A stretch of DNA of 64,000 nt from an uncultured Methylovirgula sp. (GCA_964644615.1 CAZXXA010000011.1:25816-89815), one strand, 5' to 3'. Positions 1 to 14,851 are shown, counted from the stretch's first letter. The notes: generated from the letters alone by a model not told the origin. Program-made: numbers and translations.

Positions 1-1
1 T

Positions 2-235
2 CTGCTCGTCTTCGGCGAAGCGCCGGCGCATTGGGTGCGCGCGCAACTGCGCCGCTATATCAAGCTTGCCGCACGGCGCGAGAAGCCGCCGCGCTATAAG
101 AAATTGCTTTTGGCACCCGGTGCGCAACCCGATGAACTCGGCATGGCGACGAGCTTCGATCCGATCGATTGCCGCGAGGGCTCAACGGATGATTTGATCC
201 AGAAATTTGTCGGCGAATTATGTCTGACACGTTAG
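2..235 (+). CDS. 3' end of a gene truncated by the window edge; probable TIR-domain or TIR-associated partner of the STAND NTPase
   Basis: Frame open from base 2: LLVFGEAPAHWVRAQLRRYIKLAARR...FVGELCLTR*. Its stop overlaps the STAND start at 220. It resembles, from recollection, C-termini of TIR proteins found upstream of nSTAND1 genes. Confidence 0.5.
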   Translation: MLVFGEAPAHWVRAQLRRYIKLAARREKPPRYKKLLLAPGAQPDELGMATSFDPIDCREGSTDDLIQKFVGELCLTR

Positions 236-2496
236 CAGCGGAGTCCGTACGCGCGCCCTACCCCGGCCTCCGGTCGTTTCGCCGCGATGAGACCCATCTC
301 TTTTTCGGTCGCGAGGACTGTATCCATTCGCTCGTCGATCGTTTGGCGACGACACGCTTCCTCGCCGTGCTCGGCTCGTCCGGCACCGGAAAATCTTCGA
401 TCGTCAAGACAGGTCTTCTTGAGGCGCTGGAAATCGGCCTCATGGAAAGGGCCGGCGCGCGCTGGCGCGTCATCGACTTCCGACCCGGCGGCGCGCCTCT
501 GACCAACCTCGCTCGCGAGCTCTTGAAAACCGGCTCCAAAGGCGAGGAACCGAGCGAGATCGATGCGAAGATGCTGCGCGGCTTCCTAGCCCGCGGCCCG
601 CGCTCGATAATCGAGTGGTGCCAGGACGGCAATCTGCCGGCGAAACCGAAAACCAATCTTTTATTGCTCGTTGACCAATTTGAGGAGCTGTTCCGCTATC
701 AAGGCTATGCCGGCAAGGAGGAATCGGAAGCCTTCGTAGCCTTGCTGCTTGAAAGCGCCAACAGCCCGGAATTTCCGATCTATGTCACGCTGACGATGCG
801 CTCGGAATACCTCGGCGCCTGCGCTCTTATCGACGGGCTCGCTGAATCGATCAGCCGCGGCATGGTCTTGATTCCGCGCATGACGCGTGCGCAATGCCGG
901 CAAGCTATCGAAGGGCCGGCAGAAGTCTGCGGCATCCCGTTCCAAAAGCAAGACCCTCTTGTCAACCAGATCTTGAACGATCTCGCCAATTTCGCGCCCT
1001 GGGACGACAGCGGCTCGAGCGATCAGCTCGATCGCCTTGTGCGCCGCGCCGATCAATTGCCGCTGCTGCAATACACGCTCAATCGGATGTGGCTCGATGC
1101 CAAAACGAATGGCCAGGGCAAGCCGATCAAACTGCGGCTTGCGGACTATCAGGCAATCGGTGGCCTGAGCGGCGCGCTCAACACGCATGGCAATGCGCTT
1201 TTCGACGAGCTCGCGAAGAAAGGACTCGGCATTGTCGTTGAGAATATCTTCCGCGCCCTCGTGAATGGCACGACAGTCGCCGAGGCCGTGCGGCGGCCGC
1301 GGACATTCGGCGATCTCGTCGCACTCTGCGACGGCAATGTACAAGCAGTCGAAGAGGTCCTCTACACATTCTGCGCGCCGGGCTGCAATTTTCTCGCACC
1401 TGAGTTGCGCGATCCGGGGTCGGAGAAACGCGTGCCGCTCAATGCGGGCCAATGGATCGACATCAGCCATGAGAGCCTGATCCGCCAATGGAATAAGATG
1501 GCCGAATGGCTCAATGACGAAACCATTGCCTCGCAAAATTGGCGGCGCCTCAAAGATCGGATGGCGGATGGCGAGCAGATTAGAGGCCGCGAACTGGCCA
1601 ATCTCATCGCCTGGCGGGACGAGACCAAGCCGAACGAGGCCTGGGCGGCGCGCTATGGCGGCAATTTCAAGGAGGCCATGGCCTTCCTGGACAAAAGCCA
1701 ATCGGCCGCGACAGCCCGGCGGCGGGTGTTCTGGATGGCGGGTGTGGTGATCTTCGGAATCCTATTGGCTTCGACGATCACCGCTGGCGCACTTTGGTAC
1801 CGTGCGCAGACTCTGAATGCGACTCTGGATGCACAGAATCGAGATCTTCAAAACAGCAAGGAGCTGCTCGAAAAGCAGAAGACTCTGCTCGAAAGTCAAA
1901 CGAAGGCACTGGAATCTCAGAAGACGGCGCTCGAAACAACGCTGCGCGAAATCAGCGAGATGCGGAAAGAGAAAGTGGATAAGACCGAGCGTCTTGCCAT
2001 CTTCGGACCACCACCGGCTGGCAATGACAAGAGCGAAGACGAGGACGATAAAGTTCCAGCGACGGATAAAATATCGAATACTTTAACGGGACCGACGCCG
2101 AAGGAATTGCCGGGCAGAAAAACTCTCAAGACGATGGATCTTTACGCAGCGCTCTTAGCCGCGTCTATGAAGGTCGATTCGACAACGAGCGTTCCCATCG
2201 TCTTGGTCGACGTCGACAGCCAACCGCATCCGAAAACAATTCCGACGGCCGCACGCATATCCTATGCAGGCGCTGGAGGTACGCTCGACGACAAGATTCA
2301 ACAGAAGATGTCTGCCGACCTATCGAAAGTCGTGAGTACCTGGAACAGCGCGATCATTTTCTTCGGCGGCGATGTAAAGTCCTGGGAAGGCTATAATGCC
2401 GCTTTGCGCGCTATCGAGATCGGCTATCCGAACGTCTATTGGTATCGCGGCGGCCTTGCTGCGTGGCAGGCGCAGAATTTGAAGACCGCGCCGTGA
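220..2496 (+). CDS. nSTAND1-family NTPase with TM helix, coiled coil and C-terminal rhodanese-like domain
   Basis: PYPGLRSF..FFGRE start, Walker A GSSGTGKSS, Walker B LLLVDQFEELF, LPLLQYTL, DISHESLIRQW; TM RVFWMAGVVIFGILLASTITAGALWY; heptads LEKQKTLLESQTKALESQKTALE; rhodanese tail YNAALRA..GYPNVYWYRGGLAAW. Confidence 0.85.
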   Translation: MSDTLAAESVRAPYPGLRSFRRDETHLFFGREDCIHSLVDRLATTRFLAVLGSSGTGKSSIVKTGLLEALEIGLMERAGARWRVIDFRPGGAPLTNLARELLKTGSKGEEPSEIDAKMLRGFLARGPRSIIEWCQDGNLPAKPKTNLLLLVDQFEELFRYQGYAGKEESEAFVALLLESANSPEFPIYVTLTMRSEYLGACALIDGLAESISRGMVLIPRMTRAQCRQAIEGPAEVCGIPFQKQDPLVNQILNDLANFAPWDDSGSSDQLDRLVRRADQLPLLQYTLNRMWLDAKTNGQGKPIKLRLADYQAIGGLSGALNTHGNALFDELAKKGLGIVVENIFRALVNGTTVAEAVRRPRTFGDLVALCDGNVQAVEEVLYTFCAPGCNFLAPELRDPGSEKRVPLNAGQWIDISHESLIRQWNKMAEWLNDETIASQNWRRLKDRMADGEQIRGRELANLIAWRDETKPNEAWAARYGGNFKEAMAFLDKSQSAATARRRVFWMAGVVIFGILLASTITAGALWYRAQTLNATLDAQNRDLQNSKELLEKQKTLLESQTKALESQKTALETTLREISEMRKEKVDKTERLAIFGPPPAGNDKSEDEDDKVPATDKISNTLTGPTPKELPGRKTLKTMDLYAALLAASMKVDSTTSVPIVLVDVDSQPHPKTIPTAARISYAGAGGTLDDKIQQKMSADLSKVVSTWNSAIIFFGGDVKSWEGYNAALRAIEIGYPNVYWYRGGLAAWQAQNLKTAP

Positions 2497-2587
2497 TTGT
2501 CATCGGTGAATTTTCCAATGCGGGGGCGGCGCGCCGCTGGGGTGACTGGGCTCGAACCGCCGCAAGTGCGCGAAAAGCTCAATACGC

Positions 2588-3322
2588 CTAGCGAGGCAGA
2601 TGCGAATGCTGCTTGGCCCAATGCAGCGTCGAATGGGTGGCCAGCGCTTTGCCCATTGGAGGGCTCGTCATCGAGGCGCTTGTCGTCCGAAGATGCAGAT
2701 GACCCATCGCTCCGACGCGCATCGAGGTCTGATGCGCCGTCCCCGTCGCCATCGGAGCGCCCAAGGTCGCTCCGCTATTTTGCATCATGGCCACAGGCCG
2801 CAACGCCATCTCGCCATTCCCCACGGCAGCGACGGGGGCTAGAGCCGTTTCGCTCTTCGTCATTGCTGTCATCGGCTGGGCCGACATATGGCCTTCAGCC
2901 AGGGCCGCGATCGGCCGCAGCGCGGCGCCGCCACTCACGATGGCCGCGACGGGACGCAGCGACGTCCGGCCCTCTGCCAAGCGAGCTACGGGGCCGTTTT
3001 CGATGATTGCAGCGACCGGTCGCAAGCTCGTGGTTCCATGTCGCAGGGCAGCCGTCGGACGCAGCGGAGCTTCATTATTGATGACCGCTGCAACGGGCCG
3101 CAAAGACGTCGCGCTTTTTGCGATAGCGGCGGAGGGTTGCAGGCTGGTCGCGGCGCTCTGCATGGCGAGGGCCGCACCCGGCATGGCCTCGGCGCCCATC
3201 GCCTTCGTCGGCGCGCCGGACAATTCGACCGGCCGACGCATCGATTCATCGGCAGAAGCGGTCAGAGAACCCAATCCAAGCGCGAGACCTAATCCCGCGG
3301 ACAATACATAACGCAACGCCAT
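2588..3322 (-). CDS. Secreted protein with about ten 13-residue repeats (TSLRPVAA-type)
   Basis: GGAG upstream of ATG 3322; signal-like MALRYVLSAGLGLALGLGSLTASA; repeats TSLRPVAAVINNE, APLRPTAALRHGT, TSLRPVAAIIENG, TSLRPVAAIVSGG, AALRPIAALAEGH. Confidence 0.7.
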   Translation of the reverse strand: MALRYVLSAGLGLALGLGSLTASADESMRRPVELSGAPTKAMGAEAMPGAALAMQSAATSLQPSAAIAKSATSLRPVAAVINNEAPLRPTAALRHGTTSLRPVAAIIENGPVARLAEGRTSLRPVAAIVSGGAALRPIAALAEGHMSAQPMTAMTKSETALAPVAAVGNGEMALRPVAMMQNSGATLGAPMATGTAHQTSMRVGAMGHLHLRTTSASMTSPPMGKALATHSTLHWAKQHSHLPR

Positions 3323-3521
3323 AAACGCAGCTCCGATCCTGCGAGATGAAACTGCCATGGGAAGCCCCCTATGTTTTTTTTTGCAAATCCGTTCGACCTG
3401 CGGGAAGACTCAAGAAAGCCCTGCATCGCAATGACGGATTTGTCTCGCGCTAGCGTGGCCATTTCATGGCCCACGCCGCGCATTTTCTGGTCATGCCGTC
3501 GTTTTTATGCGGCGGATTTCC

Positions 3522-4169
3522 TCACGGACTCGCTGCCTTGAAGAACTCGAAGTTCTGGAAGGTAAGTTTCGCCGTCACACCATTTCCGGCACCGCCACCG
3601 ACACCGATGAGCGAGCCATTATCAGGCGGCGTGCCGTTGAACTGCGTCATTTTCTTGCCATTGACGAAGATCGTGGCGACGTGGCCCCGCATCTGAACTT
3701 CGACCTGATTCGTGTCGCCAAGCTGGAATTTGATCGCCGGATCGGGCGTCCAGCTGATCGGCGTCAGCCAGCGGCCGTTAGAAGCGCGGTCGACCTTGTA
3801 ATAGCCCTGTTTGCCGTCGCTGCCGATATTGAGCACATACATGTTCGAATAATCGGTCACCCAGAAGAGGACCAGCGCCTGCGCCTGATCAATGGCGCTC
3901 GCTTCGGCGATCGAGGCCTGCACGCAGATGCTGCCGTCGCCATAATAATCGCTCTGGCTCACGACCCAGCGCAGATAGCCCGGCTGTGGCTGCACGACAA
4001 GCGAACCATTCGCGACACTGAGCGTGTTGTCGGCCTTGCCCCAGCTCGGGTCCAAAGTCTGGAACGTATCCTGGAACGCCGGTTTGCCCGTGCACGCCGC
4101 GAAGGCCGGATCGGTGACCAAAGCGCCGGCGAGCGCGAAGAGACCCATCAGCTTGAATCGCATACCCAT
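3522..4169 (-). CDS. Secreted beta-sandwich protein, concanavalin A/DUF1080-like lectin or glycosidase fold
   Basis: GGAGGAGG RBS before ATG 4169/4163; signal MRFKLMGLFALAGALVTDPAFA; beta-rich with TNQVEVQMRGHVATIFVNGKK and IGVGG..FQNFEF patterns typical of DUF1080-like domains. Confidence 0.65.
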   Translation of the reverse strand: MGMRFKLMGLFALAGALVTDPAFAACTGKPAFQDTFQTLDPSWGKADNTLSVANGSLVVQPQPGYLRWVVSQSDYYGDGSICVQASIAEASAIDQAQALVLFWVTDYSNMYVLNIGSDGKQGYYKVDRASNGRWLTPISWTPDPAIKFQLGDTNQVEVQMRGHVATIFVNGKKMTQFNGTPPDNGSLIGVGGGAGNGVTAKLTFQNFEFFKAASP

Positions 4170-4370
4170 CACCCTCCTCCCGACACAACGGCAGCCGCCG
4201 TCGGATGCCCCACTCGAGTAGCTCGCCCACGGCGAGCGTTCCATCAAGCATCTGAATCCGCGCAATGCCGCGCGGACAGCAATCGCCTTCAACATTGAAA
4301 GACGCGCGAGCGTCTCATAGTTCATGCAACATCGGCCCCGGCGCAGCACCGCTTCGCGACCGCCGGAGGA

Positions 4371-6218
4371 TTATGAATTCGACATCTGCCAGGAATAGAC
4401 CTTGGTCGTGACACTCGTATCCTTATCGGGCCCGACGATGACGAGCGACACGGGCCCGTCCGAGATCGGCTTGTAAGACAGCGACGGATACCACTGGCTG
4501 TCCGTATTGCTGACGATCGTGCGGTTGTTCGCGTCCTTGAGATAGATTGCCACCGGTGTTTCCTTGTCGGCATAGACAAAGACGAAGTATGGAACGCCGG
4601 CCTTCAGAGGAAGCGTCTGGACTTTGATCCGCTGCGCCTTCTTCGTCGTCGGATCGATGCGCATGTCGTTGGAGACGAGCTTGTCGGGCGTCGTCAATAC
4701 GGGCGCCGCCGCGGCCTTCGGGTCAGGCTTGGCGTGATCCATGATCCAAGCGCCGATCACATCGATGCCGCGTCTGAAATTGGCCATCTGCGCCGCCCAA
4801 TAGGGCTTGTCAGCATCGAAGGCAGCCTGGGCGCGGCCTGCCGCCAAATCCGCGACGACATCGATGCGCTGCGCATAATTGATTTCGACGCCGCTCGGCG
4901 CGCCACGGCTCGCCCACTCGCCTTTCGGGCCGAAGGTGCCGGCATTGTTGATCGCAACGATATGGCCGGACGCAGCGACGATCGGACTGCCGGAGCCGCC
5001 GCCCGTCTCCGGGATTGAATGCTGCACGAGATAGCGATGTGCGGGATCGGTTTGCAGGAACAGGAAATCCGTCAGCGCCGTGATATTGCCGAAGTGGACT
5101 TGCGGCGTCGCCGCGACCGTCAGAACCCGATCGCCCGAAACATTCTCATAAGGGAAGCCGGCAGAGGCGAGCGGCATGCCGGGCTTCAATGCCAGGAGTT
5201 CATCCTTCGATGCGAACTCGAGCCGGATCTCGGGCGGCAGTTCCTCTTTGACCGTCAGCAGACCGGCATCATAGCCATAGCCGGAGATTTCGCTGGGCGC
5301 CTGTCCATAGACAGAGGGCACAAAGGCCGGGTCCTTGCCCGAGACGAGTCTTGGAAAATCGATGTAGCCGGGATGGAAGCTGTGCTCGACGACTTCATAG
5401 GGCGTGTGGCCAGTCCCCGACTGCAGCACCAGCAGCTTGTCGCCTGGCTGCAGATTATCGCATTCGGCAATCGTCCGATCCGCCACAGGGAATTTGTCGT
5501 CGCAAATGCCGGCGATATGCGCATTGGTCGCCAAGACATGCGGACCGATCACCCAAGCCGTGCCGAGCGCCGTTTTGCGGCCCTGCGCATCCTGCAGGAT
5601 GACAAGGAAGGTCGCGTTCCAAACTTTATCGATGACGCTTTGGCTGATGCTTGTCGCAGCCGCCGCCTGGCTATGCGCCAAAGCCTGTTTGGCGGCCGTC
5701 TCGTCTTGAGTCAGGCTGGCGATCGTCGCCGCCATCTGCCGCTGATTCTGGTCGTAGATGCGATACCAGATACCAATCACCGCGACGATCAGGATCGCGA
5801 CGAACGCACCCGCCAAACGTATATGATGAAGCTGCGTCGCGGCGGGCACGAATTTATCTTCGCGGCCTGTGACGCCGATGTTCGGACTGAGATCGGCGCG
5901 GTCGATTTTGACTTCGAAGCTCGGACCGTCCTTGCGGCCGAGATGCAAGACCGAATTGGGATCGATGGTTTGATCAGCGCCGACAGGAGTTCCATTGACG
6001 CTGACAAAATGCAGGCCGTGCGAGCCTTCGTGAATATGGATGGTCCAATCGTTGAGATCGCGGACCAGCGCGAAATGCCGGCGCCCAATGAGCTCTTCAT
6101 CAGCGGGATAGACGATGTCGCAATCGGGCTCGCGGCCGAATTCGATTTTCGTTTTGCTGTCGTCGAAGCTTTGGCTCTGTCCCGCGAGCGGGCCGCTCAA
6201 GTGGCGAATGGTAATCAT
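4371..6218 (-). CDS. FHA domain - TM - trypsin-like serine protease - C-terminal PPC-like beta domain
   Basis: FHA: IEFGREPDCDI..IGRRHF..VSVNG..LHLG; TM IRLAGAFVAILIVAVIGIWY; triad TNAH / YDAGLL / GGSGSP. Confidence 0.85.
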   Translation of the reverse strand: MITIRHLSGPLAGQSQSFDDSKTKIEFGREPDCDIVYPADEELIGRRHFALVRDLNDWTIHIHEGSHGLHFVSVNGTPVGADQTIDPNSVLHLGRKDGPSFEVKIDRADLSPNIGVTGREDKFVPAATQLHHIRLAGAFVAILIVAVIGIWYRIYDQNQRQMAATIASLTQDETAAKQALAHSQAAAATSISQSVIDKVWNATFLVILQDAQGRKTALGTAWVIGPHVLATNAHIAGICDDKFPVADRTIAECDNLQPGDKLLVLQSGTGHTPYEVVEHSFHPGYIDFPRLVSGKDPAFVPSVYGQAPSEISGYGYDAGLLTVKEELPPEIRLEFASKDELLALKPGMPLASAGFPYENVSGDRVLTVAATPQVHFGNITALTDFLFLQTDPAHRYLVQHSIPETGGGSGSPIVAASGHIVAINNAGTFGPKGEWASRGAPSGVEINYAQRIDVVADLAAGRAQAAFDADKPYWAAQMANFRRGIDVIGAWIMDHAKPDPKAAAAPVLTTPDKLVSNDMRIDPTTKKAQRIKVQTLPLKAGVPYFVFVYADKETPVAIYLKDANNRTIVSNTDSQWYPSLSYKPISDGPVSLVIVGPDKDTSVTTKVYSWQMSNS

Positions 6219-6312
6219 CGCAGATACTCAAATAAAGATAAGAAAATGCGCCATACCACTAGGGCTTGGCCATAGTGTCCGCAGGCTTTTTAAAAAGCAA
6301 GCCGCATTTCAG

Positions 6313-8202
6313 CTAGGAATTCTGCGGGTTCGACACCGCGGCAACGATGATACGGCTGACCTCCGCCGCCGATCGCGGTCGCAACCATTTGACCGGCGCA
6401 ACCATGCGCCGCAAAAGGCTTATGCACGGCTGTGGGATGCCAGCAGAACGCAGTGATTTCGTAATACCGTTGTCATATCGCCAGAAATTGCGCCCCATTT
6501 TCGGTGCCACGCCGAGCAATTCGAGCGCCATGACCCCTAATGCAAAAAGGTCGGTACGCGCATCGATGCGGCCGCCTTCCTTTTGTTCCGGCGCCATATA
6601 GGCCGGCGTTCCCCGGCCCGAGCGCTCATTGAGGCCGAGAAGCGCAATGCCGAAATCCACGATCACCGGCTGCTTCGTCCCGGCCAGCATGACGTTGTCA
6701 GGCTTGAGATCGCAATGCACGATGTGTGCGGCGTGAATGGCGGAGAGCGCATAAGCGATCTTGGTGATGAGATCGAGCGCTTGCGTAGCCTTCAGCACAT
6801 CCGGCTTGCCGGCATCCTGCAAGACAGCGCGCAGACTGGGCCCGTTGATGAGGTCTTCGACCAGCGTGACTTTGCCATTGGGCTCGACGATCAGGCCGCG
6901 AATGCGCGCGACACCGGGATGATCGACACGTGACGCTGCCGCGACCTCGGTGCGCGCCGTTTCAATCGCCAGGTCGCGCTGCGCGGGATTATAAAGCTGC
7001 GCAAGATCGACGCTCTTGACCGCGACTTCGCCGCCAAGTTCGAGGTCATAGGCACGATAGACGCTGCCTTGTCCGCCTGCGCCGAGCGGCTTGCGATAGA
7101 TGAAGCGACGCGCCGGGTCCTGCGCGGTGGGACTCAGCGCATAGGAATCCCATGTCGTCATATTTTCCGAGCCGCCCGAGGCTGCGAGCGCGAAGCGAAC
7201 CCTGTCGGCATGACCAGTAAGGCCGCGCATGACGGCAATCCGCAGTGCCTTCGATAGAGTCTTCTGCGCATCGTCCTTGCGGCCGAGACCATCGAGCGCT
7301 TTCGCCTGCAGGAGCCGCGCCTTGACCTCGCGGCCGGCGAGATCAGGTTCGCCAAGCGACGTGATAATCTCTTCGAGCTTCGTCTCTGCCAAGGTGAAGT
7401 TGTTTTCCGCCAAAGCGAGTTCTGCTTCTGCCTCGGTGAGTTCCGTCGCCTCGAATGAATTATTGGCTGGCAACTGTGCGCGGGCGGCGTCAAGCAATCT
7501 ATGCGCATCGTCGAATCTGCGCTGCGCGACGGCACAGCGTATATCTTCGATCGCCACGAGATGATGCATGCGCGGATTGGCGGCGGCGAGATCTGCGACG
7601 ATCGACTGCCGGAATTGCAGCGCGTCGTCGATCTGCCCTGCCGCGACGCGCGCCTGCAGCGCACCGACCTGCGCCCTGTGTTTCTGCACATCCGTCAGAT
7701 TGCCGTCCGGAAGATCAAGCGCGCGATCGAAGAGCGGTGCCGCGGCATGCGGACGGCCCATCTCCAATTCGAGCCGCCCCGCCTCGGCGATCGCCCGCGC
7801 CGTGCCGGCCACGTCGTTGGCGGCAAAACTTTCGGCCATGGCACGAAGGAGATCGAGGCCCGCCTCGCGGCCTTCGCCGCACCAGGCATGGACGACGGCA
7901 GCTTCGCGCTTGGCTTCGGCAAGCTGAACGCGATCTTCCAACTGTGCGAAGAGATCGGCGGCTTCGTTGAGATCGCCCAGCGCCTGATCGCGGAAGCCGA
8001 GACGGTTCGTGACAATGCCTTTGGCGAGAAGCCATTGCGCCTTCAAGGCGGGATCGGCGGAGACCGCCGCCGCGATGGCGCGCAGACGCTCGCTGATATG
8101 TGCGGGCCGCACATTGGCGGCGATGGCTTCGCGACAGGCCTTGATGACGGCTTCGGGTGGCAGGCCGGCATCGGATGCGCTGGCGATGTCACTCTCCGTC
8201 AC
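6313..8202 (-). CDS. Cytoplasmic Ser/Thr protein kinase with N-terminal TPR-like helical repeats
   Basis: LGAGGQGSVY, VAVK, HCDLKPDN, DFG, GTPAYMAPE, DLFALG; Ala/Leu helical repeats in the first about 350 aa; AAGAAAGG RBS before GTG 8202. Confidence 0.9.
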   Translation of the reverse strand: MTESDIASASDAGLPPEAVIKACREAIAANVRPAHISERLRAIAAAVSADPALKAQWLLAKGIVTNRLGFRDQALGDLNEAADLFAQLEDRVQLAEAKREAAVVHAWCGEGREAGLDLLRAMAESFAANDVAGTARAIAEAGRLELEMGRPHAAAPLFDRALDLPDGNLTDVQKHRAQVGALQARVAAGQIDDALQFRQSIVADLAAANPRMHHLVAIEDIRCAVAQRRFDDAHRLLDAARAQLPANNSFEATELTEAEAELALAENNFTLAETKLEEIITSLGEPDLAGREVKARLLQAKALDGLGRKDDAQKTLSKALRIAVMRGLTGHADRVRFALAASGGSENMTTWDSYALSPTAQDPARRFIYRKPLGAGGQGSVYRAYDLELGGEVAVKSVDLAQLYNPAQRDLAIETARTEVAAASRVDHPGVARIRGLIVEPNGKVTLVEDLINGPSLRAVLQDAGKPDVLKATQALDLITKIAYALSAIHAAHIVHCDLKPDNVMLAGTKQPVIVDFGIALLGLNERSGRGTPAYMAPEQKEGGRIDARTDLFALGVMALELLGVAPKMGRNFWRYDNGITKSLRSAGIPQPCISLLRRMVAPVKWLRPRSAAEVSRIIVAAVSNPQNS

Positions 8203-8216
8203 GGCAATAGCCTTTC

Positions 8217-9110
8217 TTAATAAGGCGATCCCGGCGCCGTCGGCCCGCTTGGCTTTACGGCGGGATTTTGCCGATCCGGTGACGTGGCCTCAGGATGCAG
8301 ATTTAAAGGGGGGCATGGTTTTGCCGGCGTGTCGGCATGCGGGTCCAGTGCTTTATCTTGCGCGCCGGCAGCGGCTCGCATCTGATCTGCGGGCGCCGCA
8401 TCGCAATTGGAATTGGATTTCGCCAAGGGCTCGGCGCGATGTGTGCCCACCGGGGCTGGCTGGCTGATCGCTGCGCCGGTCGGCGCCGCGGGCTGAGATG
8501 CGGCGGCGGGCGGTGGCGGCGCGCTTTGCGGCGAGGTGTTGACACTGGTCGGCGCTGGGCCGGCCGAATGCCAGAGTTGCACGCCCCCGACGACGACGAC
8601 GAGCAAAGTCGCCGCCATGGCGGCATAGATGCCCCAGTTGAAGCGGTCATTGCCAGCTACTGGCCTCCCGACCCGTATCGGCGCCGGATCCGGCAGCGGC
8701 GCTGCGGCGGCTGCCGCGACCGGTTCTGTCACCGCATTCGGCGCAAAAGCCGCCATCGCTTCGGCCATCAGCGCTGGCGAACCCTGTTGCGATTGCGCTG
8801 GCAGGCCATCGAGAAAGGCCGCAGCGGATTCGAGCGCCGCGCGCGCATCCGAGTCATGCGCCAGTAATCCGATCAGGCGCTCGCGGTCTTCGTCCGACAG
8901 GCGCGCATCGAGATAGGCGGCTAGCTCGTTCGACATCTGCGCATTGGACAACGTCGGCTCGGCAGCACCGAGCGCCAGCGCATCTGCTGCATCGGCAATA
9001 AGACGCGCGCGCAAAATCGCATGGGCGTCGCTGTCGGACGGTACATCGCCGGTCCTGTCCTCCAGTGCCTGAAGCAGCCGCTCAATCGCCATCTGCACGC
9101 TTTCCGTCAT
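8217..9110 (-). CDS. Putative membrane-anchored anti-sigma factor
   Basis: ATG 8 nt after the sigma stop; LAAYLDARLSDEDRERLIGLL anti-sigma-type helix; TM WGIYAAMAATLLVVVVGGVQLW; Pro/Ala-rich tail. Confidence 0.6.
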   Translation of the reverse strand: MTESVQMAIERLLQALEDRTGDVPSDSDAHAILRARLIADAADALALGAAEPTLSNAQMSNELAAYLDARLSDEDRERLIGLLAHDSDARAALESAAAFLDGLPAQSQQGSPALMAEAMAAFAPNAVTEPVAAAAAAPLPDPAPIRVGRPVAGNDRFNWGIYAAMAATLLVVVVGGVQLWHSAGPAPTSVNTSPQSAPPPPAAASQPAAPTGAAISQPAPVGTHRAEPLAKSNSNCDAAPADQMRAAAGAQDKALDPHADTPAKPCPPLNLHPEATSPDRQNPAVKPSGPTAPGSPY

Positions 9111-9118
9111 GAGCCATC

Positions 9119-10318
9119 TTACTTCGTGAGCGACAATTGTGAATCGCCGTTCTCGTGCGCTTCGCGCATCGCAACGAACCAGCGCTGGATCTTCTTCTTC
9201 AGACGGTCGACATCCTCGACTGGACAATGCATCAGCTCGGCAATTTTCCGGCGCGGCATGGGCTCGGCGCCAAAGGCCAGTTGTAGATACAGGCGCTCTT
9301 CATCCGAGAGCGCCGCAGCGCCGGCCCTGATCCGGGCAATCAGCGTCTCCCGCGTCGTCTCTTCCTCCGCGAGAAGCAGCTGCTCCTCCGGCGTCAGCGC
9401 ATAAGATTGGGCAAATTCGCCTTCGATCGCGGCCGGCGCGCCGTCGAGCGAAACGATCTTCGGCTTGGCCGGCGGTGCCGCATGTAACGTCGGCGTTGCC
9501 TCGGTCACCCGCACCAGAGCTGCGCGCAGATCTGGCTCGGAGGGTGCATCCGTCAGGCGGCTCCGCAAAAGATCGGTGAGCCGCGGGATTTCCAACGGGC
9601 AGCCGTCCCAGACCACGGCTTTGTAGATTTCCTGCTCGAGCGGCGGCATACGTTCGATCGCGGCCGGCAGACGGCGGCGCGGAATGTCACGGCGGAGTTC
9701 ATCGGCCAGAAGATTTTTGACGACTTTTAGAACGAAGCCGACGAAACTGCCCTTGCCGCCATATTCGCGCAGCCGTCGGCAATTGCTTTCGACGAGCTTT
9801 ACACAAATGTCTTGATAGATGTCGTCCCATCGCCCCGTCCCCCCATCGAAGGGAAAGCGCTTGGCAATTCGGATCTGTATGTCTTGATCGAAAATGCGCT
9901 TGAACCGGGCCCAGCCGTTTTCCGGATCGGCGAGCAACCGGTCGACAGCGCGGCGGGCCAGCAACTCGCGCGCCAACAGCGCGAGAAAGGAGCCGAGCGA
10001 GGCGCGCCCGTCGAAGGCCTGCAGCCGCTGGTAGTTTTCCTCTTTGAGCTCCGTCAGGACATAGAAAAGCGCTGCATGCTGCTCGTCCTGCTGCGGCGCC
10101 ATTTTGGCGATGGCAGCAGTCAGCGGCGGGATGGCGCGATGCAGAAAGGCGGCGGCCGCCGATGCGTCCCCCGCGACCAGCCGGCCGATCAGCGCGTGAT
10201 CCGCGGCGGGTTCATGCGCGGGAATGGCGGCATGGCGCGACGGTACGACGAACTTAACCAGCGCATGATTGCTATCCTGCGCTGTGGCCCCAGGTCCCAA
10301 AGTTGAATCGCTTTTCAA
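9119..10318 (-). CDS. Sigma-70 family (ECF-like) sigma factor with duplicated region 2
   Basis: Two sigma2-like units (RLQAFDGRASLGSFL and DDIYQDICVKL..RLREYGGKGSFVGFV..NLLADELRR); SLD..TPEE linker; sigma4 LSDEERLYLQL..PRRKIAELM; start codon uncertain. Confidence 0.8.
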   Translation of the reverse strand: MKSDSTLGPGATAQDSNHALVKFVVPSRHAAIPAHEPAADHALIGRLVAGDASAAAAFLHRAIPPLTAAIAKMAPQQDEQHAALFYVLTELKEENYQRLQAFDGRASLGSFLALLARELLARRAVDRLLADPENGWARFKRIFDQDIQIRIAKRFPFDGGTGRWDDIYQDICVKLVESNCRRLREYGGKGSFVGFVLKVVKNLLADELRRDIPRRRLPAAIERMPPLEQEIYKAVVWDGCPLEIPRLTDLLRSRLTDAPSEPDLRAALVRVTEATPTLHAAPPAKPKIVSLDGAPAAIEGEFAQSYALTPEEQLLLAEEETTRETLIARIRAGAAALSDEERLYLQLAFGAEPMPRRKIAELMHCPVEDVDRLKKKIQRWFVAMREAHENGDSQLSLTK

Positions 10319-10483
10319 AACTTGGCCCCGAAACGCTCCGTCCGCCCGTCCGACGCGAAGAGTTAAAGGAATCCCAGCTTCTCTGTCCAGAAAATTGGCC
10401 GATTTGAAGGTTTTGCCAATTTGCGGTCCTGGCCGCTTTTATAATGGTTTGGCTCGAAGAGCGGACGGCGACCAGCAAGCCGG

Positions 10484-12904
10484 TTAGATTGCAATCCTCA
10501 TATAGCGCTTCATATCGGCATCGGGCCGTGGCGCGCCGCGCCGTGACGGGCCCGGATCGACGGCCGGCGGAATCGTGTCGGCATCGCTCCAGAACATGTC
10601 GAGTTCCGCGAGCTTTCCCGTCAGAGACTCGGCTTCACCATGCGTAAAGACACAAAGCATATCGGCGCGCCGCGCCAGATAGGCGTTGACGCTTCGTGAG
10701 CCCTCTTCGATCACCGCCGGATCGCGAAAGGCCGCATCATTCGAATGACCACGCGCGCCGATCCGGACGACTTCGACATAGCTGAAGGCATTGAACAGCT
10801 CGCGGCGCGCCGCAAGCGCTTTGTGGATCTCATGTTCCGCTGTCTTCGCGTCTATATACACGGACTTGAGGTGGCTCACATAAGGCACGCCTTCAAGCGC
10901 GATGAGGCGAAGGTCGACATCCTCAGCGAACGTGCTCCAGCGCGATTTGCGCTTCACCCTTTGCTTGAACAAAGAAGCGAAAGCTTCGACCAGCTTGAAC
11001 TCGCCTGCCGCCAGGGACGCGACAATCGTAATCACATATTGCGCGGAGAGATCGGCGAGCGGCAGCACCAGAAGCCGGCCGATCTCGTTTTGGGCGGCTA
11101 CGCTCAGTGCCGAATTGCGACCGTCTTCGGCGGCGAAGCCGACGACGAACTCCGGCTTGAACCGCCTGCCCTTTTCGCGGGCCGATTCCTTGATGATCGT
11201 CGAGATCAGCGCAATCTGTTTGCGGTCCTTCTCCTGATCTTTCAAACTGACAGAATCGAATGGCACGAGATCATTGTGCAAGCGCAGATCATCGTCGCGC
11301 GCCGGTGAATAGCGCCAGCCTTCCATCACTCGGTCGGCGATCCAACGCTCATGTTCGATGCGCTCAAGCCCTTCCGTCCGGCTGCCCTCCGCCGTCCATT
11401 GCGTTTGCCAGCCTTTGTCGACGGCCAGAAAACTGTCGGAGAATTGGCGTTCCGTAGCAAGGCCCAGCGACCATAATTTGGCGGGGATATGATCCGCGGC
11501 ATGCCGGTCGGCCCGGCGGTACGTCTCGGGCAAGGCAACCCAGGAAACATTGGCGGCTTGGCTCTCGTTTGCGAGTTCGCGGAACGCCGCATGCAAGCGT
11601 TTGGCAAGGCGGTCGCGTTCGCCTTCGCCGAGAATATCGACAGCGAGCGCTTCGCGGCTGAGACCGATCGGAATGATGGAATCGAGTGGATCGACGACGC
11701 GATCCTTGTCGGCAAGATTGAAAAGCGCCCCGCTGCCCTCCGGGTCTTGGAGCGGCATGAAGATCGGCGCGAAGCAGCGGCCGCTGCGCCGGCGCATCGC
11801 GCGCAAGGCCAGAGCCGCAGCAACATTGTCGGCATCTTTCTCAAAACAGAGTGCAATTGCCGTCACCGGCGCGTTCTCGTCACGGCCGAAAAGCACCTCC
11901 CGTTGAACGGTGCCCGCAGCGTCGAGCGGCACGGCAAGCATGTCGCACTGGACGAAGACAATGTCGACCGCCATGTCATATTGCGGCTTTTCGCGCGCGA
12001 AAGCATCGGCCTCGGCCTCGGCGTTTCGGTCGATCACCGTGACGAAGGGCTGCTCCAAAGTGCCGGCAATCGAATCTTGCACCGCCTCTTCGAGAAGCAC
12101 ACGGCCGAGCCGGCCGAAACCGATGATGACCAGATGGACGCGCGCCACGCCTTGCCGATCAGCAGAGGCATAAAGCGGATGCCGCGCCAGCGTATCGCGC
12201 ACCGACAAGCGTGCCTCGTCGTAGATCAAAATGTCGCGCTGAACGCCAAGCAGATCGCCGAATTCATCGGCTATGTCATTCGAATCGATATTGCAGGAGA
12301 TCGGCGGCGCCTTGTCGCCATAGGCCTGCCGGATCGCCCGCACGAGTGCCATATTGCTGGACAGATCGCCCGTATCGATGACGATGCGCTTCGCCTTCGC
12401 CAATCCGACGGGCCGCGCGATATTGGTGAAATTCAGCGGCAGAGTGACCCGCGACCGGCTTGGCGGCAGCTCGCTGTCGTCGGCGACGACATGGGTGGCC
12501 TTGCGCTTCATCGAAGCGAGATAGCCAACCACCTCTCGCGCCGTCGGCGTATCGCCGATAACGACCATATGATCGCGGCGGCGGCTCAAGGCGATCGCGC
12601 GGATCTCCTGCGAGAATAGTGCCCAAACCGCGAGCAGGATCGCGCTCAGCATGATCAGCCGGGCGAGGATCGAGCCGACGATCAGGATGGCGCCTTCGTT
12701 CTTGCCGATGAACCAGCCATCGGCAGTGAAGGCCATAAACAAGAAGGGAATGCGCTCGAACCACGGTACGGGGTGGTGATCGATTTCGATCGGTTCGGTA
12801 ATGAGCCCGATGATGACCAGGACGGCCGCAACGATGCCGCCAAGCAAAAGCAGCTTGAATTTGACGCTTAAACGCCTCGATGAATTTGCTGAGGCATCCG
12901 GCAT
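10484..12904 (-). CDS. Channel-like membrane protein: 2 TM, tandem RCK/TrkA-N, RyR repeats, SLOG-like C-terminus
   Basis: Two hydrophobic helices around FMAFTADG; HMVVIGD and HLVIIGFGRLG Rossmann motifs; RyR motifs SWVALPETYRRADRHAADHI and EHERWIADRVMEGWRYSPARDDDLRLHNDLVPFD. Confidence 0.8.
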   Translation of the reverse strand: MPDASANSSRRLSVKFKLLLLGGIVAAVLVIIGLITEPIEIDHHPVPWFERIPFLFMAFTADGWFIGKNEGAILIVGSILARLIMLSAILLAVWALFSQEIRAIALSRRRDHMVVIGDTPTAREVVGYLASMKRKATHVVADDSELPPSRSRVTLPLNFTNIARPVGLAKAKRIVIDTGDLSSNMALVRAIRQAYGDKAPPISCNIDSNDIADEFGDLLGVQRDILIYDEARLSVRDTLARHPLYASADRQGVARVHLVIIGFGRLGRVLLEEAVQDSIAGTLEQPFVTVIDRNAEAEADAFAREKPQYDMAVDIVFVQCDMLAVPLDAAGTVQREVLFGRDENAPVTAIALCFEKDADNVAAALALRAMRRRSGRCFAPIFMPLQDPEGSGALFNLADKDRVVDPLDSIIPIGLSREALAVDILGEGERDRLAKRLHAAFRELANESQAANVSWVALPETYRRADRHAADHIPAKLWSLGLATERQFSDSFLAVDKGWQTQWTAEGSRTEGLERIEHERWIADRVMEGWRYSPARDDDLRLHNDLVPFDSVSLKDQEKDRKQIALISTIIKESAREKGRRFKPEFVVGFAAEDGRNSALSVAAQNEIGRLLVLPLADLSAQYVITIVASLAAGEFKLVEAFASLFKQRVKRKSRWSTFAEDVDLRLIALEGVPYVSHLKSVYIDAKTAEHEIHKALAARRELFNAFSYVEVVRIGARGHSNDAAFRDPAVIEEGSRSVNAYLARRADMLCVFTHGEAESLTGKLAELDMFWSDADTIPPAVDPGPSRRGAPRPDADMKRYMRIAI

Positions 12905-13303
12905 AGGCGGCTCCAGAATAATTGCTGGAAGCCACAGATTTTTGGGCGAGTCAATCAGACTTCGCCCACCGCAGGTTGCGGATCAGGGCAGCAGGCCCTC
13001 TGGAGGAGCGAGATCAGCAGGGCGATCCATTCTGCGCGAGCAGCGCGCATTATTTGTGTCGGCACAAGCGACATCCGAAACGATGATGAGATCGGCCTTT
13101 TTCCGCCGATTGGGCTTTGACCGAGGCAACCGCCCGCCGGAGCCATTCGGCCCGCCGATGTGTTGCGATGATGACGGAACATCGGGCTCGTGGGCAGCCC
13201 GTTAATCGAAGATGGCCCAGGGTCAGGAGCGCAAGCTTGTCCGAGGCGGGATTGGGCGGCCAAGGCCTGACGCCTCGGCCTGTGTAAAAGAGGGGATGTG
13301 GTC

Positions 13304-13966: not shown

Positions 13967-14087
13967 TCGCTTTTAAAGCGATGATCGGTGGCCGCCGCAG
14001 GCACATCGTGCCCCAGCGCCCCGCAGCTTCAGACGGACGTGGCCGAGATTTCTATGGATTAAACTTATTTAAGAATGGCAGCGGCGC

Positions 14088-14552: not shown

Positions 14553-14851
14553 ACCCGTCCCTCCTCAGGTGATCGAGCTTAGATCACATGTTTGAAGGGT
14601 GGCAGCAAGCCCGAGACCGGGGGTGGAGAGATGCGGAAATGCAGCAGCCCTTGCGTGGCCAAAAGCGCTTCCGAGCCCAAGCGATCGTCCTTGCCTTAAA
14701 CGAGATGCACCCGTCCGGCCGGATTCCGGGTGGATTCGGTCAGAACGACGATACGATTGGAGATTGGCGCTTTCTAGCGGCCGCCGAAGCGAATCACCAG
14801 CTCAGCGACGGGCCGCGAATGGGAGAGGCCAGCATCGGAAAACATGGGATT

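Follow-up and report, generated by a model that had tools for sequence, protein, structure and literature searches.

The gene cluster at positions 1-12904 of the window (the whole 64,000-nt stretch of DNA analyzed here, from a Methylovirgula-like alphaproteobacterium) is most probably an instance of a recurrent signaling island of immune type, to judge from its predicted protein domains and from the gene neighborhoods of homologs. The island consists of twelve genes in ~18.4 kb (C11:20342-38719), of which the cluster in the window is the larger part; the genes continue for ~5.5 kb upstream of base 1, so that the left edge of the cluster in the window is artificial. The island combines a TIR protein and an nSTAND1 NTPase, two SLOG-type membrane proteins, a pair formed by a Ser/Thr kinase and an FHA-trypsin protease that spans the membrane, a sigma/anti-sigma pair, and secreted proteins encoded at the operon tail (Table 1). 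The kinase-protease pair is apparently the most constant part of such islands and apparently undescribed, and what best ties the cluster together is the combination of TIR with nucleotide receptors of the SLOG/TPR-S kind. The reading of the island as a modular conflict (immune-type), Thoeris-like system that would signal via NAD-derived nucleotides made by TIR has, in our estimate, an even chance of being correct, all the functions being predicted ones.

The preliminary description of positions 1-12904 listed nine genes, and the translations and Pfam searches bear out these ORFs and their domains. The sequence retrieved past base 1 adds the remainder of the TIR gene and the genes for a YbjN-like protein, a SLOG-type protein with four hydrophobic helices (SLOG-4TM) and a secreted ARPP-1 protein; these lay outside the view of the earlier reader, who therefore missed the TIR and SLOG/TPR-S theme. 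The combination had not been recognized as a named system, and indeed no PADLOC-DB v2 model identifies one: the island proteins fit no single named anti-phage system, the matches being generic kinase-domain ones (PD-T4-6, mad6 and MkoA), a weak P-loop one (mad8) and, for the TIR protein, only PDC-S66 and RT-TIR. The protease, sigma, anti-sigma, RyR, SLOG-4TM, YbjN-like and ARPP-1 proteins have no match to any PADLOC model.

Table 1. Features of the island that lie in the window, with positions counted from the first base of the window
Feature	Position	Strand	Characteristics
TIR gene, 3' end	1..235	+	525-aa protein; FxsC-like TIR and long C-terminal region; Pfam TIR_2, E 1.5e-11
nSTAND1 NTPase with TM helix, coiled coil and rhodanese-like domain	220..2496	+	758 aa; Pfam nSTAND1, E 2.5e-81; Rhodanese, E 2e-6
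Repeat protein, secreted	2588..3358	-	about ten 13-residue (T)SLRPVAA-type repeats, from translation
3keto-disac_hyd-like (DUF1080-type) secreted protein, possibly lipoprotein	3522..4169	-	Pfam 3keto-disac_hyd, E 6.6e-7
FHA-TM-trypsin protease	4371..6218	-	615 aa; FHA, E 7e-7; Trypsin_2, E 1.2e-7; C-terminal beta-rich domain
TPR-Ser/Thr kinase	6313..8202	-	629 aa; cytoplasmic MalT-like TPR array; Pkinase, E 7e-33; TPR_MalT, E 3.5e-14
Anti-sigma-like protein	8217..9110	-	297 aa; single-pass, TM residues 157-175; Pro/Ala-rich periplasmic tail
Sigma-70/ECF-type sigma	9119..10318	-	399 aa; NCBIfam sigma70-ECF, 47.6 bits (cutoff 42.9)
Promoter-like box upstream of sigma gene	10362..10390	-	TGGACA, ~16-17 nt, TTTAAC/TTAATC; conserved in this locus, L019, L020 and L023
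RyR membrane protein	10484..12904	-	806 aa; N-terminal TM helices, RCK/TrkA_N-like Rossmann domains, RyR; RyR, E 1.1e-7

The kinase-protease pair and its genomic context

The protease belongs to a family of ~198 clusters (50% identity) detected at E<=1e-30 among 1.84 billion representatives. Its H234, D317 and S411 are invariant across 15 homologs, and the trypsin-like catalytic domain is predicted to be periplasmic, with the FHA domain in the cytoplasm. The FHA domain keeps the GR and His residues, and Gly/Ala replaces the serine of the SxxH motif, i.e., the canonical phosphothreonine-contacting Ser is absent. A Pfam search detects no PDZ domain in this protein. The translation of the kinase gene contains the motifs VAVK, HCDLKPDN, DFG and APE, the catalytic loop being of the non-RD HCD type.

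Gene neighborhoods were compared at 79 loci from several phyla (Alphaproteobacteria, Planctomycetota, Verrucomicrobiota), with the FHA-TM-trypsin gene as the anchor. A homolog of the TPR-kinase, defined by a match that covers the TPR part, adjoins the protease gene in 65 of the 79 loci (at <=1.5 kb in 60), and all four genomes that the order-level sample yielded have it as well. Tandem copies of the protease gene occur, numbering up to 3-4. Within 10 kb of it, SLOG or TPR-S is encoded in 49/79 loci and TIR or nSTAND1 in 32/79 (TIR in 22/79, nSTAND1 in 18/79), and the 55 loci with >=6 kb on both flanks include 49 with the kinase, 41 with a SLOG/TPR-S/RyR-type receptor, 21 with TIR and 17 with nSTAND1; these counts are lower bounds that may be biased, the domain profiles having been built up iteratively from the loci under comparison, with the present one as the seed, and are inflated by shared ancestry, many loci coming from few genera. 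The pair stands alone in some loci, such as L017/L018, and in 5 of the 55 well-flanked ones; it does so in GAS191-type genomes and in Planctomycetota.

Homologs of TIR and nSTAND1 are encoded beside those of the kinase and the FHA-protease in the Methylovirgula-like loci L019, L020 and L023 and in two other lineages, namely G017 (L009) and a Rhizobiaceae MAG (L091), so that the plus-strand gene pair and the minus-strand run do co-occur in homologous neighborhoods, contrary to the refuting outcome named in the preliminary description. In L019, L020 and L023, a TIR-nSTAND1-TPR fusion sits between the anti-sigma and kinase genes; L022 lacks the TIR/nSTAND1 pair, is otherwise colinear and has a TIR-TM-TPR gene instead, and all four loci encode a TIR-like/TPR-S protein. 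Close relatives exchange parts yet retain the categories of parts. Among 151 sampled genomes of the order, the protease is present in 5 (and in 0/3 sampled genomes of the same family); nSTAND1 is found in 4/5 protease-bearing compared with 10/146 other genomes (Fisher p 2e-4), SLOG in 3/5 (p 2e-3) and RyR in 2/5 (p 0.013) of the protease-bearing ones.

The modules are also separable: TIR with nSTAND1 (G117, G063, G095, G143), RyR-SLOG and sigma/anti-sigma each occur without the kinase-protease pair, and the adjacency could therefore reflect clustered independent systems. The island would then be a mosaic of neighbors with no signal flow between them, made up of a suicide module of TIR and STAND, Thoeris-like TIR/SLOG effector modules (one or two), the kinase/FHA-protease pair and an ordinary sigma pair, each of which is known alone elsewhere; the location of TIR/nSTAND1 on the opposite strand and their absence from L022 are compatible with this explanation. 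However, the same few families recur beside the pair in varied order and orientation in distant lineages, whereas restriction-modification, CRISPR and Abi genes do not, and in three loci (L031, L032, L052) the SLOG-4TM gene lies directly 5' of the kinase-protease pair and shares its strand. Furthermore, every protein of the cluster is single-copy in its own genome, and the TIR, nSTAND1, SLOG and SLATT profiles match only this locus, within ~18 kb of a 3.7-Mb genome, save that one TIR profile out of three has a weak match on another contig (E 2.5e-5). Sigma, anti-sigma and kinase genes are joined with operon-tight spacing. We consider such a mosaic possible but unlikely. Of the multi-component system proposed in the preliminary description, one part is supported, namely that the genes did not come together by chance (TIR/nSTAND1 and RyR recur beside the pair), and the other, a single linear cascade, is not.

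The TIR and nSTAND1 proteins

The start of the TIR gene lies 1,342 nt before base 1 of the window (L002:13658). In addition to the Pfam match, the protein is similar to the NCBIfam profile FxsC_Nterm (E 2.9e-9, under the cutoff), and its W91/E95 motif, which includes the catalytic Glu, does not vary when the protein is aligned with four other TIRs of related loci. The TIR and nSTAND1 genes overlap by 16 nt and are translationally coupled. The nSTAND1 match (PF20703) spans profile positions 1-369 of 379; the protein begins at the NTPase module, with no effector fused at the N-terminus, the TIR being encoded by the separate upstream gene. The C-terminal part consists of a TM helix (residues 502-520), a coiled coil and a rhodanese-like domain rather than a TPR/WD40 repeat sensor. 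The rhodanese-like domain is Cys-less, is predicted to be periplasmic and matches the NCBIfam PQQ_CXXCW-like profile (E 5.5e-15, under the cutoff). Relatives with TIR-nSTAND1-TPR or nSTAND1-WD40 layouts exist at other loci; the closest nSTAND1 homologs in protease-free genomes keep the upstream TIR gene, and two of these are also near TPR-S/SLOG.

A presumably active TIR encoded upstream of, and tightly coupled to, an NTPase-sensor gene is shared with the TIR-effector STAND/NTPase systems, i.e., the nSTAND1 systems (Kaur et al. 2021, PMC8195603) and the dyads of TIR-FC (FxsC-like) with ParA/STAND (bioRxiv 10.64898/2026.10.19.760177), as are the nSTAND1 clade and sensors that possibly read inside/outside signals. 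In contrast to these systems, the island NTPase has no ParA domain, TIR and STAND are separate genes, not a fusion, and the TM helix, coiled coil and periplasmic dead rhodanese take the place of the usual TPR/WD40 array. Avs-like tripartite receptors share the nSTAND1 module but differ in the fused N-terminal effector and the C-terminal TPR/WD40 sensor, both of which are missing here.

SLOG-type membrane proteins and associated secreted proteins

The SLOG-4TM protein (644 aa) is the product of a gene a short way upstream of base 1, which lies divergently on the other strand at ~1 kb from the TIR gene, with the YbjN gene between the two. Its N-terminal domain, modeled with AF2 at pLDDT 88.6, is predicted to adopt a SLOG Rossmann-like fold with Gly-rich motifs: the top Foldseek matches are YpsA (E 7.7e-6), ShosA, DprA, the N-terminus of TRPM5, LOG and ThsA-SLOG, and G78 and D80 of the first motif and G185 of the second are invariant. 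Weak Pfam matches to YAcAr and DprA are found in 7/13 family members; a sequence-profile search of PDB with this domain gave no matches. The SLATT assignment is weak (DUF4231, a member of the SLATT clan, E 0.21); four hydrophobic helices are present, and a single-sequence model of the whole protein reached a pLDDT of only 40.

For the second protein, which had been labeled a RyR/SLOG channel, the RyR match is joined by one to TrkA_N (25.4 bits; cutoff 23.8). The SLOG half of that label applies to the homologs: those in G147 and G061 have a true SLOG domain at the C-terminus (E 2e-22), and the present protein aligns with them up to residue 779, yet a SLOG profile built in this work does not match its C-terminus (10484-11180), also with filters off. 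This C-terminus is a divergent or degenerate region colinear with the SLOG of the homologs. RyR homologs adjoin the kinase-protease pair in L022, L027 and G097, and RyR-SLOG fusions and RyR genes with TIR neighbors exist without the pair.

The YbjN-like and ARPP-1 proteins, both secreted, are encoded beside SLOG-type genes; published work assigns ARPP and YbjN-like chaperones to ADP-ribose-centered conflict systems (PMC9503650).

The sigma/anti-sigma pair and the secreted proteins

The sigma factor and its single-pass partner have, at the sequence level, the features of an ECF sigma/anti-sigma pair, and their genes come first in the kinase-protease operon. The sigma family includes 108 relatives, mostly of 350-400 aa. 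The designation "double-sigma2" is based on a 35-residue internal repeat (pairwise E 1e-5), by which the N-terminal extension duplicates part of region 2, and is weaker than originally stated. The partner has no match in Pfam, anti-sigma domains included; it contains the motif AAYLDxxLS...R, typical of anti-sigma N-terminal domains, and is homologous to the partners in free-standing sigma pairs (E 4e-10 and 5e-9). Remeasurement confirms gaps of 8 nt between the sigma stop (9119) and the anti-sigma start (9110) and of 14 nt between the anti-sigma stop (8217) and the kinase start (8202).

The 3keto-like ORF reaches position 4349; M61 is the likely start, and alignments with homologs begin at about residue 57. 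Homologs of this gene are located directly 3' of the protease gene in L019-L024, L029 and L036 and on the opposite strand in L027. The gap of ~40 nt between the two genes in L021 and L022 suggests co-transcription, i.e., read-through from the same operon. The repeat protein has a hydrophobic, signal-peptide-like N-terminus, to which its conservation (in L019 and L023) is limited; it matches no family in Pfam or NCBIfam, and TRF detects no repeat at the DNA level in its gene.

The preliminary description proposed a linear cascade in which the STAND, kinase or channel senses a stimulus, whereupon the FHA-protease cuts the anti-sigma and the released sigma transcribes the two secreted genes. The spacing of the sigma, anti-sigma and kinase genes and the conserved order sigma, anti-sigma, kinase, protease, 3keto-like in L019, L020, L022 and L023 would fit such a cascade, as would the predicted periplasmic location of both the protease catalytic domain and the Pro/Ala-rich tail of the anti-sigma. 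The layout resembles that of DegS, which makes the site-1 cut in RseA: in both cases, a sigma and its single-pass anti-sigma are encoded along with a periplasmic, membrane-anchored protease of the trypsin fold. However, the island protease lacks the PDZ sensor; its FHA domain, which is cytoplasmic, and the kinase encoded next to it suggest that control comes from the cell interior instead. Moreover, the sigma pair accompanies the protease in only 4/79 loci and the present one, all from one Methylovirgula-like lineage, its homologs elsewhere being free-standing two-gene pairs; therefore, cleavage of the anti-sigma, itself putative here, cannot be the conserved role of the protease, most of whose family members lack a sigma/anti-sigma pair. 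The promoter-like box occurs once in the locus (with 3 loose matches genome-wide), no second copy being found before the secreted genes, which, in the case of the 3keto-like gene, might be reached by operon read-through. Thus, neither cleavage of the anti-sigma by the protease nor a link from the sigma to the two secreted genes found direct support, and we regard the cascade as quite improbable compared with the modular conflict system.

Flanking genes and distribution

The genes that border the island are housekeeping ones without mobile-element marks. Integrase, restriction-modification and other known defense genes were looked for in the flanks and none were found; therefore, this is not a generic defense island. 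The bordering genes could also point to non-immune envelope or physiological signaling (for example, envelope stress, cell-cell or developmental signaling, or control over a secreted pathway that processes glycans or proteins) that reuses TIR, SLOG, STAND and kinase domains. Many parts of the island face the periplasm, namely the rhodanese sensor of the PQQ-cluster CXXCW-like type, the protease and the anti-sigma tail, and four of the proteins (3keto-like, repeat, YbjN-like, ARPP-1) are secreted; in Rhizomicrobium, the pair adjoins a CHASE2 cyclase and a cNMP-gated MscS-like channel. Against this explanation stand the patchy distribution in the order, the tandem amplification of the protease gene and the fast turnover of partner genes among close relatives, as well as the presence of TIR with the catalytic Glu, nSTAND1, SLOG, SLATT-like, TPR-S and ARPP proteins, which are otherwise reported from conflict systems. 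A non-immune role therefore appears improbable, and a conflict system is the reading pursued below.

Relation to Thoeris and a possible mechanism

Among the effectors of Thoeris are SLATT, TPR and ion-channel proteins, with type VII combining TIR and SLATT (cADPR), type VIII TIR and CMP-hydrolase-TPR, and type X TIR and an ion channel (bioRxiv 10.64898/2025.12.03.692087). The island resembles these systems in the clustering of a TIR that has the catalytic Glu with membrane or TPR-S proteins whose domains are of nucleotide-receptor type (SLOG, putatively SLATT-like, TPR-S and channel-like), and one locus can carry several effector types. It differs in that the gene coupled to that for TIR encodes an nSTAND1 NTPase, a protein of its own whose sensor is predicted to be periplasmic, the SLOG-4TM gene is divergent and apparently outside the TIR operon, with the YbjN gene intervening, and the PADLOC ThsA/ThsB models match neither the TIR nor the effectors, SLOG-4TM included. 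The main text of that paper mentions no kinase, FHA or trypsin component.

In the conflict system envisaged here, a periplasmic or envelope cue would be read by the rhodanese-like domain of the nSTAND1 protein, leading to NTP-dependent STAND assembly and activation of the TIR partner. The product of the latter, an ADP-ribose derivative, would be bound by the SLOG domains, and the membrane effectors would open. In parallel or downstream, the TPR-kinase would phosphorylate a threonine that is read by the cytoplasmic FHA domain of the protease, so that the periplasmic trypsin domain is switched on from inside and cuts envelope or secreted targets; in the Methylovirgula-like lineage, these may include the anti-sigma tail, with an added transcriptional output. 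Catalytic residues are retained in the TIR (E95), the protease (H/D/S triad) and the kinase (motifs listed above).

PMC8195603 (citing Burroughs and Aravind 2020) traces parts of the ASK signalosome of metazoans (TPR region and kinase) to bacterial conflict systems. The island-type loci are similar in that TPR-S/MAP3K_TRAF_bd-type domains are encoded beside a Ser/Thr kinase, but TPR-S and the kinase are separate proteins here. A tentative and, as a whole, rather doubtful proposal is that the pair serves TIR/SLOG immunity in bacteria as a hitherto undescribed output module of "inside-out" type, in which a cytosolic nucleotide alarm would be converted, via threonine phosphorylation read by the FHA domain, into periplasmic proteolysis, the sigma/anti-sigma pair having been captured in Methylovirgula as a transcriptional branch; if so, TPR-S/SLOG adaptors beside the kinase would make this module the bacterial equivalent, in split form, of the ASK (TPR-kinase) signalosome of animals. 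The pair is apparently new to the literature, with an earlier mention in Burroughs and Aravind 2015 or 2020 possible. Pairs of a nuclease and a trypsin-like protease are recurrently acquired two-gene effector cassettes (PMC12799240); likewise, the present pair is a fixed one, contains a trypsin-fold protease and is joined to several different immune-type sensor modules, but it has a kinase in place of the nuclease, and the protease is predicted to be periplasmic.

Gene content and boundaries of the island

The gene cluster at the left edge of the window is real, non-random and larger than the preliminary description reported. Judging from the sequence comparisons, it is most aptly classed with the TIR/SLOG (Thoeris-like) and TIR-STAND conflict systems, as a new form of these in which a conserved kinase/FHA-protease pair appears to be the new element. 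The ORFs previously listed in the first 12.9 kb are all present, with the domain calls reproduced by ORF calling and by Pfam and NCBIfam searches, and the gaps of 8 nt and 14 nt that separate the sigma, anti-sigma and kinase genes are exact. The window edge truncates the cluster, and extension beyond base 1, which the preliminary description had suggested, reveals four further cluster genes in the upstream DNA (locus L002). Simple hydropathy analysis predicts that the STAND, protease and anti-sigma proteins have a single TM helix apiece and that the RyR protein has N-terminal helices. In the gene of the secreted repeat protein, TRF finds no tandem repeats at the DNA level.

Genes of the island and of its right flank (positions without a contig or locus prefix are window coordinates)
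Feature	Position	Strand	Evidence and remarks
YbjN-domain protein	upstream, within L002:9524-13846 (C11:20342-24661)	-	read from the likely true start, encodes a ~190-aa secreted protein
644-aa protein, putative SLOG-4TM	upstream, within L002:9524-13846 (C11:20342-24661)	-	no Pfam match
Secreted ARPP-1 protein	upstream, within L002:9524-13846 (C11:20342-24661)	-	Pfam E 4.2e-51; outermost gene
525-aa TIR protein, 3' end of gene	1-235	+	TIR_2 E 1.5e-11; 16-nt overlap with STAND start
nSTAND1 with C-terminal rhodanese-like domain	220-2496	+	Pfam E 2.5e-81 and E 2e-6
Secreted protein, about ten 13-residue repeats	2588-3358	-	read from translation
Secreted 3keto-disac_hyd-like protein	3522-4349	-	Pfam
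FHA + Trypsin_2 protease	4371-6218	-	Pfam E 7e-7 and E 1.2e-7
TPR_MalT + Pkinase	6313-8202	-	Pfam E 3.5e-14 and E 7e-33
Anti-sigma-like protein	8217-9110	-	one predicted TM helix; no Pfam match
Sigma-70/ECF-type sigma	9119-10318	-	NCBIfam TIGR02937, 47.6 bits (cutoff 42.9)
RyR + TrkA_N	10484-12904	-	Pfam; RyR E 1.1e-7
LuxR/GerE-type regulator	13304-13966	-	right flank
DUF1003 protein	14088-14552	-	right flank
Low-molecular-weight phosphotyrosine phosphatase (LMW-PTP)	17648-18202	-	right flank
tRNA-Glu(UUC)	18332-18407	-	right flank; followed by recJ

Both flanks consist of ordinary genes (aldo-keto reductase, Hsp20, the LuxR-type regulator, DUF1003, LMW-PTP, tRNA-Glu and RecJ), so that the island comprises twelve genes in about 18.4 kb (C11:20342-38719); these flanks contain no integrase, transposase or known defence genes. 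The GC content is uniform over the region. In the host genome (3.7 Mb, 79 contigs), of which the window is C11:25816-89815, every cluster protein is single-copy, and the TIR, nSTAND1, SLOG and SLATT profiles match only this locus, with the exception of a weak match of one TIR profile (E 2.5e-5) on contig C48. A conserved chromosomal site between the aldo-keto reductase and LigT/LMW-PTP, as in Methyloceanibacter, was considered and rejected given that the reductase shares no more than 31% identity and LigT lies on a different contig.

The kinase/FHA-protease pair

The FHA-TM-trypsin family includes about 200 clusters at 50% identity (E<=1e-30), and the gene is patchily distributed: it is present in 5 of the 151 sampled genomes of the order and in none of the three that were taken from the same family. 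The comparison was anchored on this gene. When one genome from each species was scanned with the homologue alignment, 79 loci with flanks of up to 10 kb were obtained, from Beijerinckiaceae, Methyloceanibacter, Rhizomicrobium, Micropepsaceae, Rhizobiaceae, Planctomycetota, Opitutaceae and others. These loci were searched by local tblastn with the twelve island proteins and with profiles seeded from this locus. A TPR-kinase homologue adjoins the protease gene in 65 of the 79 loci (the match covers the TPR part, not the kinase domain alone), with a gap of less than 1.5 kb in 60 of these; the counts rest on tblastn and profile matches because greedy ORF calling on the GC-rich loci gave antisense artefacts, and many of the 79 loci are related by descent. 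The pair is rare yet widespread, with representatives in several phyla.

Other components are also found around the pair. Homologues of the N-terminal domain of the 644-aa protein are encoded in 37 of the 79 loci and TPR-S (PF20308) in 41, so that 49 loci contain one or the other; TIR is present in 22 loci, nSTAND1 in 18, and either one in 32. When the count is restricted to the 55 loci whose flanks extend 6 kb or more in each direction, the kinase is found in 49, SLOG, TPR-S or RyR-type proteins in 41, TIR in 21 and nSTAND1 in 17. In the 151-genome sample, nSTAND1 is present in 4 of the 5 protease-bearing genomes versus 10 of the 146 others (Fisher p 2e-4), and both the SLOG protein (3/5, p 2e-3) and RyR homologues (2/5, p 0.013) are enriched in the protease-bearing genomes.

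The catalytic triad of the protease (H234/D317/S411) is invariant in the homologue alignment, and the kinase retains the VAVK, HCDLKPDN, DFG and APE motifs. The FHA domain of the protease keeps Gly-Arg and His, with Gly/Ala in place of the phosphate-contacting Ser of canonical FHA domains.

Several lineages show their own arrangements. The FHA-TM-trypsin gene is tandemly amplified in five loci (L019, L020 at 10001-15637, L058, L060 and L081), with two to four paralogues of approximately 52-55% identity. The Methyloceanibacter-type loci (L037-L054, L062, L077 and L079) have a fixed order of TIR-TM-TPR, cNMP-binding/HTH/TPR-S/SLOG and FHA-TM-trypsin genes, with the TPR-kinase gene convergent, followed by two to five tandem genes for secreted S1 (IVGG-type) proteases that could be substrates or form a protease cascade. 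In the Rhizomicrobium-type loci (L066-L087), in which no TIR is detected, genes for a CHASE2 adenylate/guanylate cyclase and a cNMP-binding MscS-like channel immediately precede those for the kinase, a DUF4145-TPR-S protein and the FHA-protease, an arrangement that may be genus-level synteny only.

SLOG, RyR and TIR proteins

The single-sequence AlphaFold model of the entire 644-aa protein is poor (pLDDT 40); its N-terminal domain, modelled from a 35-sequence alignment, is predicted with confidence (pLDDT 88.6). The best structural matches of this domain all belong to the SLOG superfamily, namely YpsA (E 7.7e-6), ShosA, DprA, the TRPM5 N-terminal domain, LOG and the SLOG domain of ThsA. Only the fold search gave such matches; a PDB sequence search with the SLOG profile gave none. 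Weak Pfam matches to YAcAr or DprA, and nothing else consistent, are found in 7 of 13 members, and the C-terminal half contains four hydrophobic helices with a faint match to DUF4231 (SLATT clan). Taken together, these similarities suggest that the 644-aa protein is a SLOG-4TM protein with a putative SLATT-like second half. The same SLOG domain forms the end of the cNMP-binding/HTH/TPR-S protein encoded directly upstream of the protease in Methyloceanibacter-type loci and is part of a DUF4145/TPR-S/SLOG protein in Micropepsaceae-type loci; the equivalent Rhizomicrobium protein consists of DUF4145 and TPR-S only.

The SLOG-like tail ascribed to the RyR protein in the preliminary description holds by ancestry, given that RyR-family membrane proteins in two genomes that lack the kinase/protease pair carry a fused, clearly recognisable SLOG domain at the C-terminus (E 2e-22; G147, L106:8873-11251, and G061, L107:9191-11599). 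It is not detected here by profile, and because the SLOG profile has no match in the C-terminus of the protein from this locus, we call this region colinear with SLOG, not a SLOG domain. RyR homologues adjoin a SLOG-SLATT gene in G048 (L108) and the gene for a 718-aa TIR protein in G129 (L109), and the family looks like a TIR-linked group of channel-type effectors. The TIR proteins come in three forms, an FxsC-like 525-aa protein, TIR-TM-TPR proteins and TIR-nSTAND1-TPR fusions; an invariant W...E catalytic motif is common to five TIR proteins.

Co-occurrence and exchange of modules

The plus-strand pair and the minus-strand run, which the preliminary description joined in one system, do occur together elsewhere. 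Orthologous TIR/nSTAND1 pairs occupy the same convergent position in three related loci (L019, L020 and L023), and in both G017 and a Rhizobiaceae MAG (L091), the kinase/protease pair has as its neighbour a TIR/nSTAND1 pair with 51-53% nSTAND1 identity. Among protease-less genomes, those with the closest nSTAND1 homologues (G117, G063, G095 and G143) retain a TIR gene immediately upstream of nSTAND1, and two of these four encode TPR-S or TPR-S-SLOG within about 6 kb.

The modules are separable, and close relatives swap parts. In L017 and L018, the kinase/protease pair stands alone amid housekeeping genes. The pair itself has exceptions: in two Beijerinckiaceae-type loci (L024:7142-9847 and L036:7166-9826), an MMPL transporter gene is followed by the FHA-protease and 3keto-like genes, with no kinase detected within 10 kb. 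L022 is colinear with the present locus except that the TIR/nSTAND1 pair is missing and a TIR-TM-TPR gene is located at the far end. In L019, L020 and L023, a TIR-nSTAND1-TPR gene is inserted between the anti-sigma and kinase genes, and two or three protease paralogues are encoded in tandem; in these three loci and L022, a gene for a TIR-like/MAP3K_TRAF_bd/TPR-S protein adjoins the sigma gene. Across the loci, the functional categories are constant and the proteins that fill them vary, a pattern reported for conflict systems (PMC9503650).

The sigma/anti-sigma genes

The preliminary description proposed a cascade in which the FHA-protease cuts the anti-sigma protein and the freed sigma factor expresses the two secreted proteins. 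The sigma protein belongs to a family of 350-400 aa, for which no assignment to a named ECF group was found, that is common in Xanthobacteraceae and Bradyrhizobium-like genomes; in the N-terminal extension of the sigma protein, 35 residues of region 2 recur (E 1e-5). In two examined examples (L098:8001-9884 and L099:8001-9981), family members form free-standing pairs with single-pass partners of about 245 aa that are homologous to the anti-sigma-like protein of this locus (E 4e-10 and 5e-9); neither pair has a kinase or FHA-trypsin gene nearby, and a Peptidase_S8 gene adjoins the pair in L098. Only Methylovirgula-like loci have the sigma/anti-sigma pair within the kinase/protease operon. Upstream of the sigma gene, four loci share a conserved TGGACA-N16/17-TTTAAC box. 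No second copy exists in the locus, including the regions before the secreted genes, and only three loose matches are found genome-wide, so that a sigma regulon that includes the secreted genes through a shared box was rejected. In a simple promoter/terminator scan, sites are no more numerous than in shuffled sequence. Given the restriction of the sigma/anti-sigma genes to Methylovirgula-like loci and the lack of the box before the secreted genes, the cascade does not hold as the core logic of the system and is possibly one lineage-specific branch.

Relation to known systems and a possible mechanism

The preliminary description recognised no named system in this combination, and PADLOC likewise detects no matching system. 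No kinase/FHA-protease pair was found in the defence-system catalogues and literature searched (full text included); an earlier mention may exist in the papers in which SLATT and TPR-S were reportedly defined, Burroughs et al. 2015 (NAR) and Burroughs and Aravind 2020 (J Bacteriol). Among the known relatives, Thoeris types VII, VIII and X combine TIR with SLATT, a TPR(-S) hydrolase and an ion channel, respectively (bioRxiv 10.64898/2025.12.03.692087), dyads of TIR and an NTPase, nSTAND1 variants included, have been described (bioRxiv 10.64898/2026.10.19.760177), and nSTAND1 itself has been defined (PMC8195603). A kinase/FHA/trypsin component in this context is not mentioned in the main text of the Thoeris preprint, in the TIR-NTPase preprint, in PMC8195603 or in Kaur et al. 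2020. YbjN-like and ARPP proteins have previously been placed in ADP-ribose-centred systems (PMC9503650).

The chances are about even that the modules of the island are functionally linked and belong to a TIR/SLOG conflict system; any single step of the following scheme is much less probable than this general reading. The STAND protein would sense a periplasmic cue through its dead rhodanese domain, and the coupled TIR would be activated by NTP-dependent assembly. Both membrane proteins might then bind an ADP-ribose-derived product through their SLOG domains, and would permeabilise or gate the membrane. The TPR-kinase, perhaps recruited in other lineages by TPR-S/SLOG adaptors, would phosphorylate a threonine that is read by the cytoplasmic FHA domain of the protease, which would thereby start to cleave envelope or secreted substrates in the periplasm; in this lineage, the anti-sigma tail could plausibly be a further substrate.

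If the modules cooperate, TIR/SLOG signalling would gain a kinase-gated protease outside the cytoplasm, an output of a type so far missing from descriptions of Thoeris-like systems, and a STAND receptor with a periplasm-facing sensor would detect invaders or damage at the envelope, not in the cytosol. The association of the pair with TPR-S proteins would then also be relevant to the origin of ASK-type kinase signalosomes in bacteria. Should the modules be independent, the locus nevertheless illustrates in compact form the clustering of immune-type modules and their changes of partner. The kinase/FHA-protease pair is a concrete candidate for a new signalling cassette.

For the predicted periplasmic rhodanese-like domain of the STAND protein (window 2080-2496), the closest family is that of the CXXCW proteins associated with PQQ catabolism (NCBIfam TIGR03865; E 5.5e-15, which is below the cutoff), an intriguing link given the methylotroph lineage. 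Gly and Ser occupy the positions at which the two Cys of the CXXCW family are expected.
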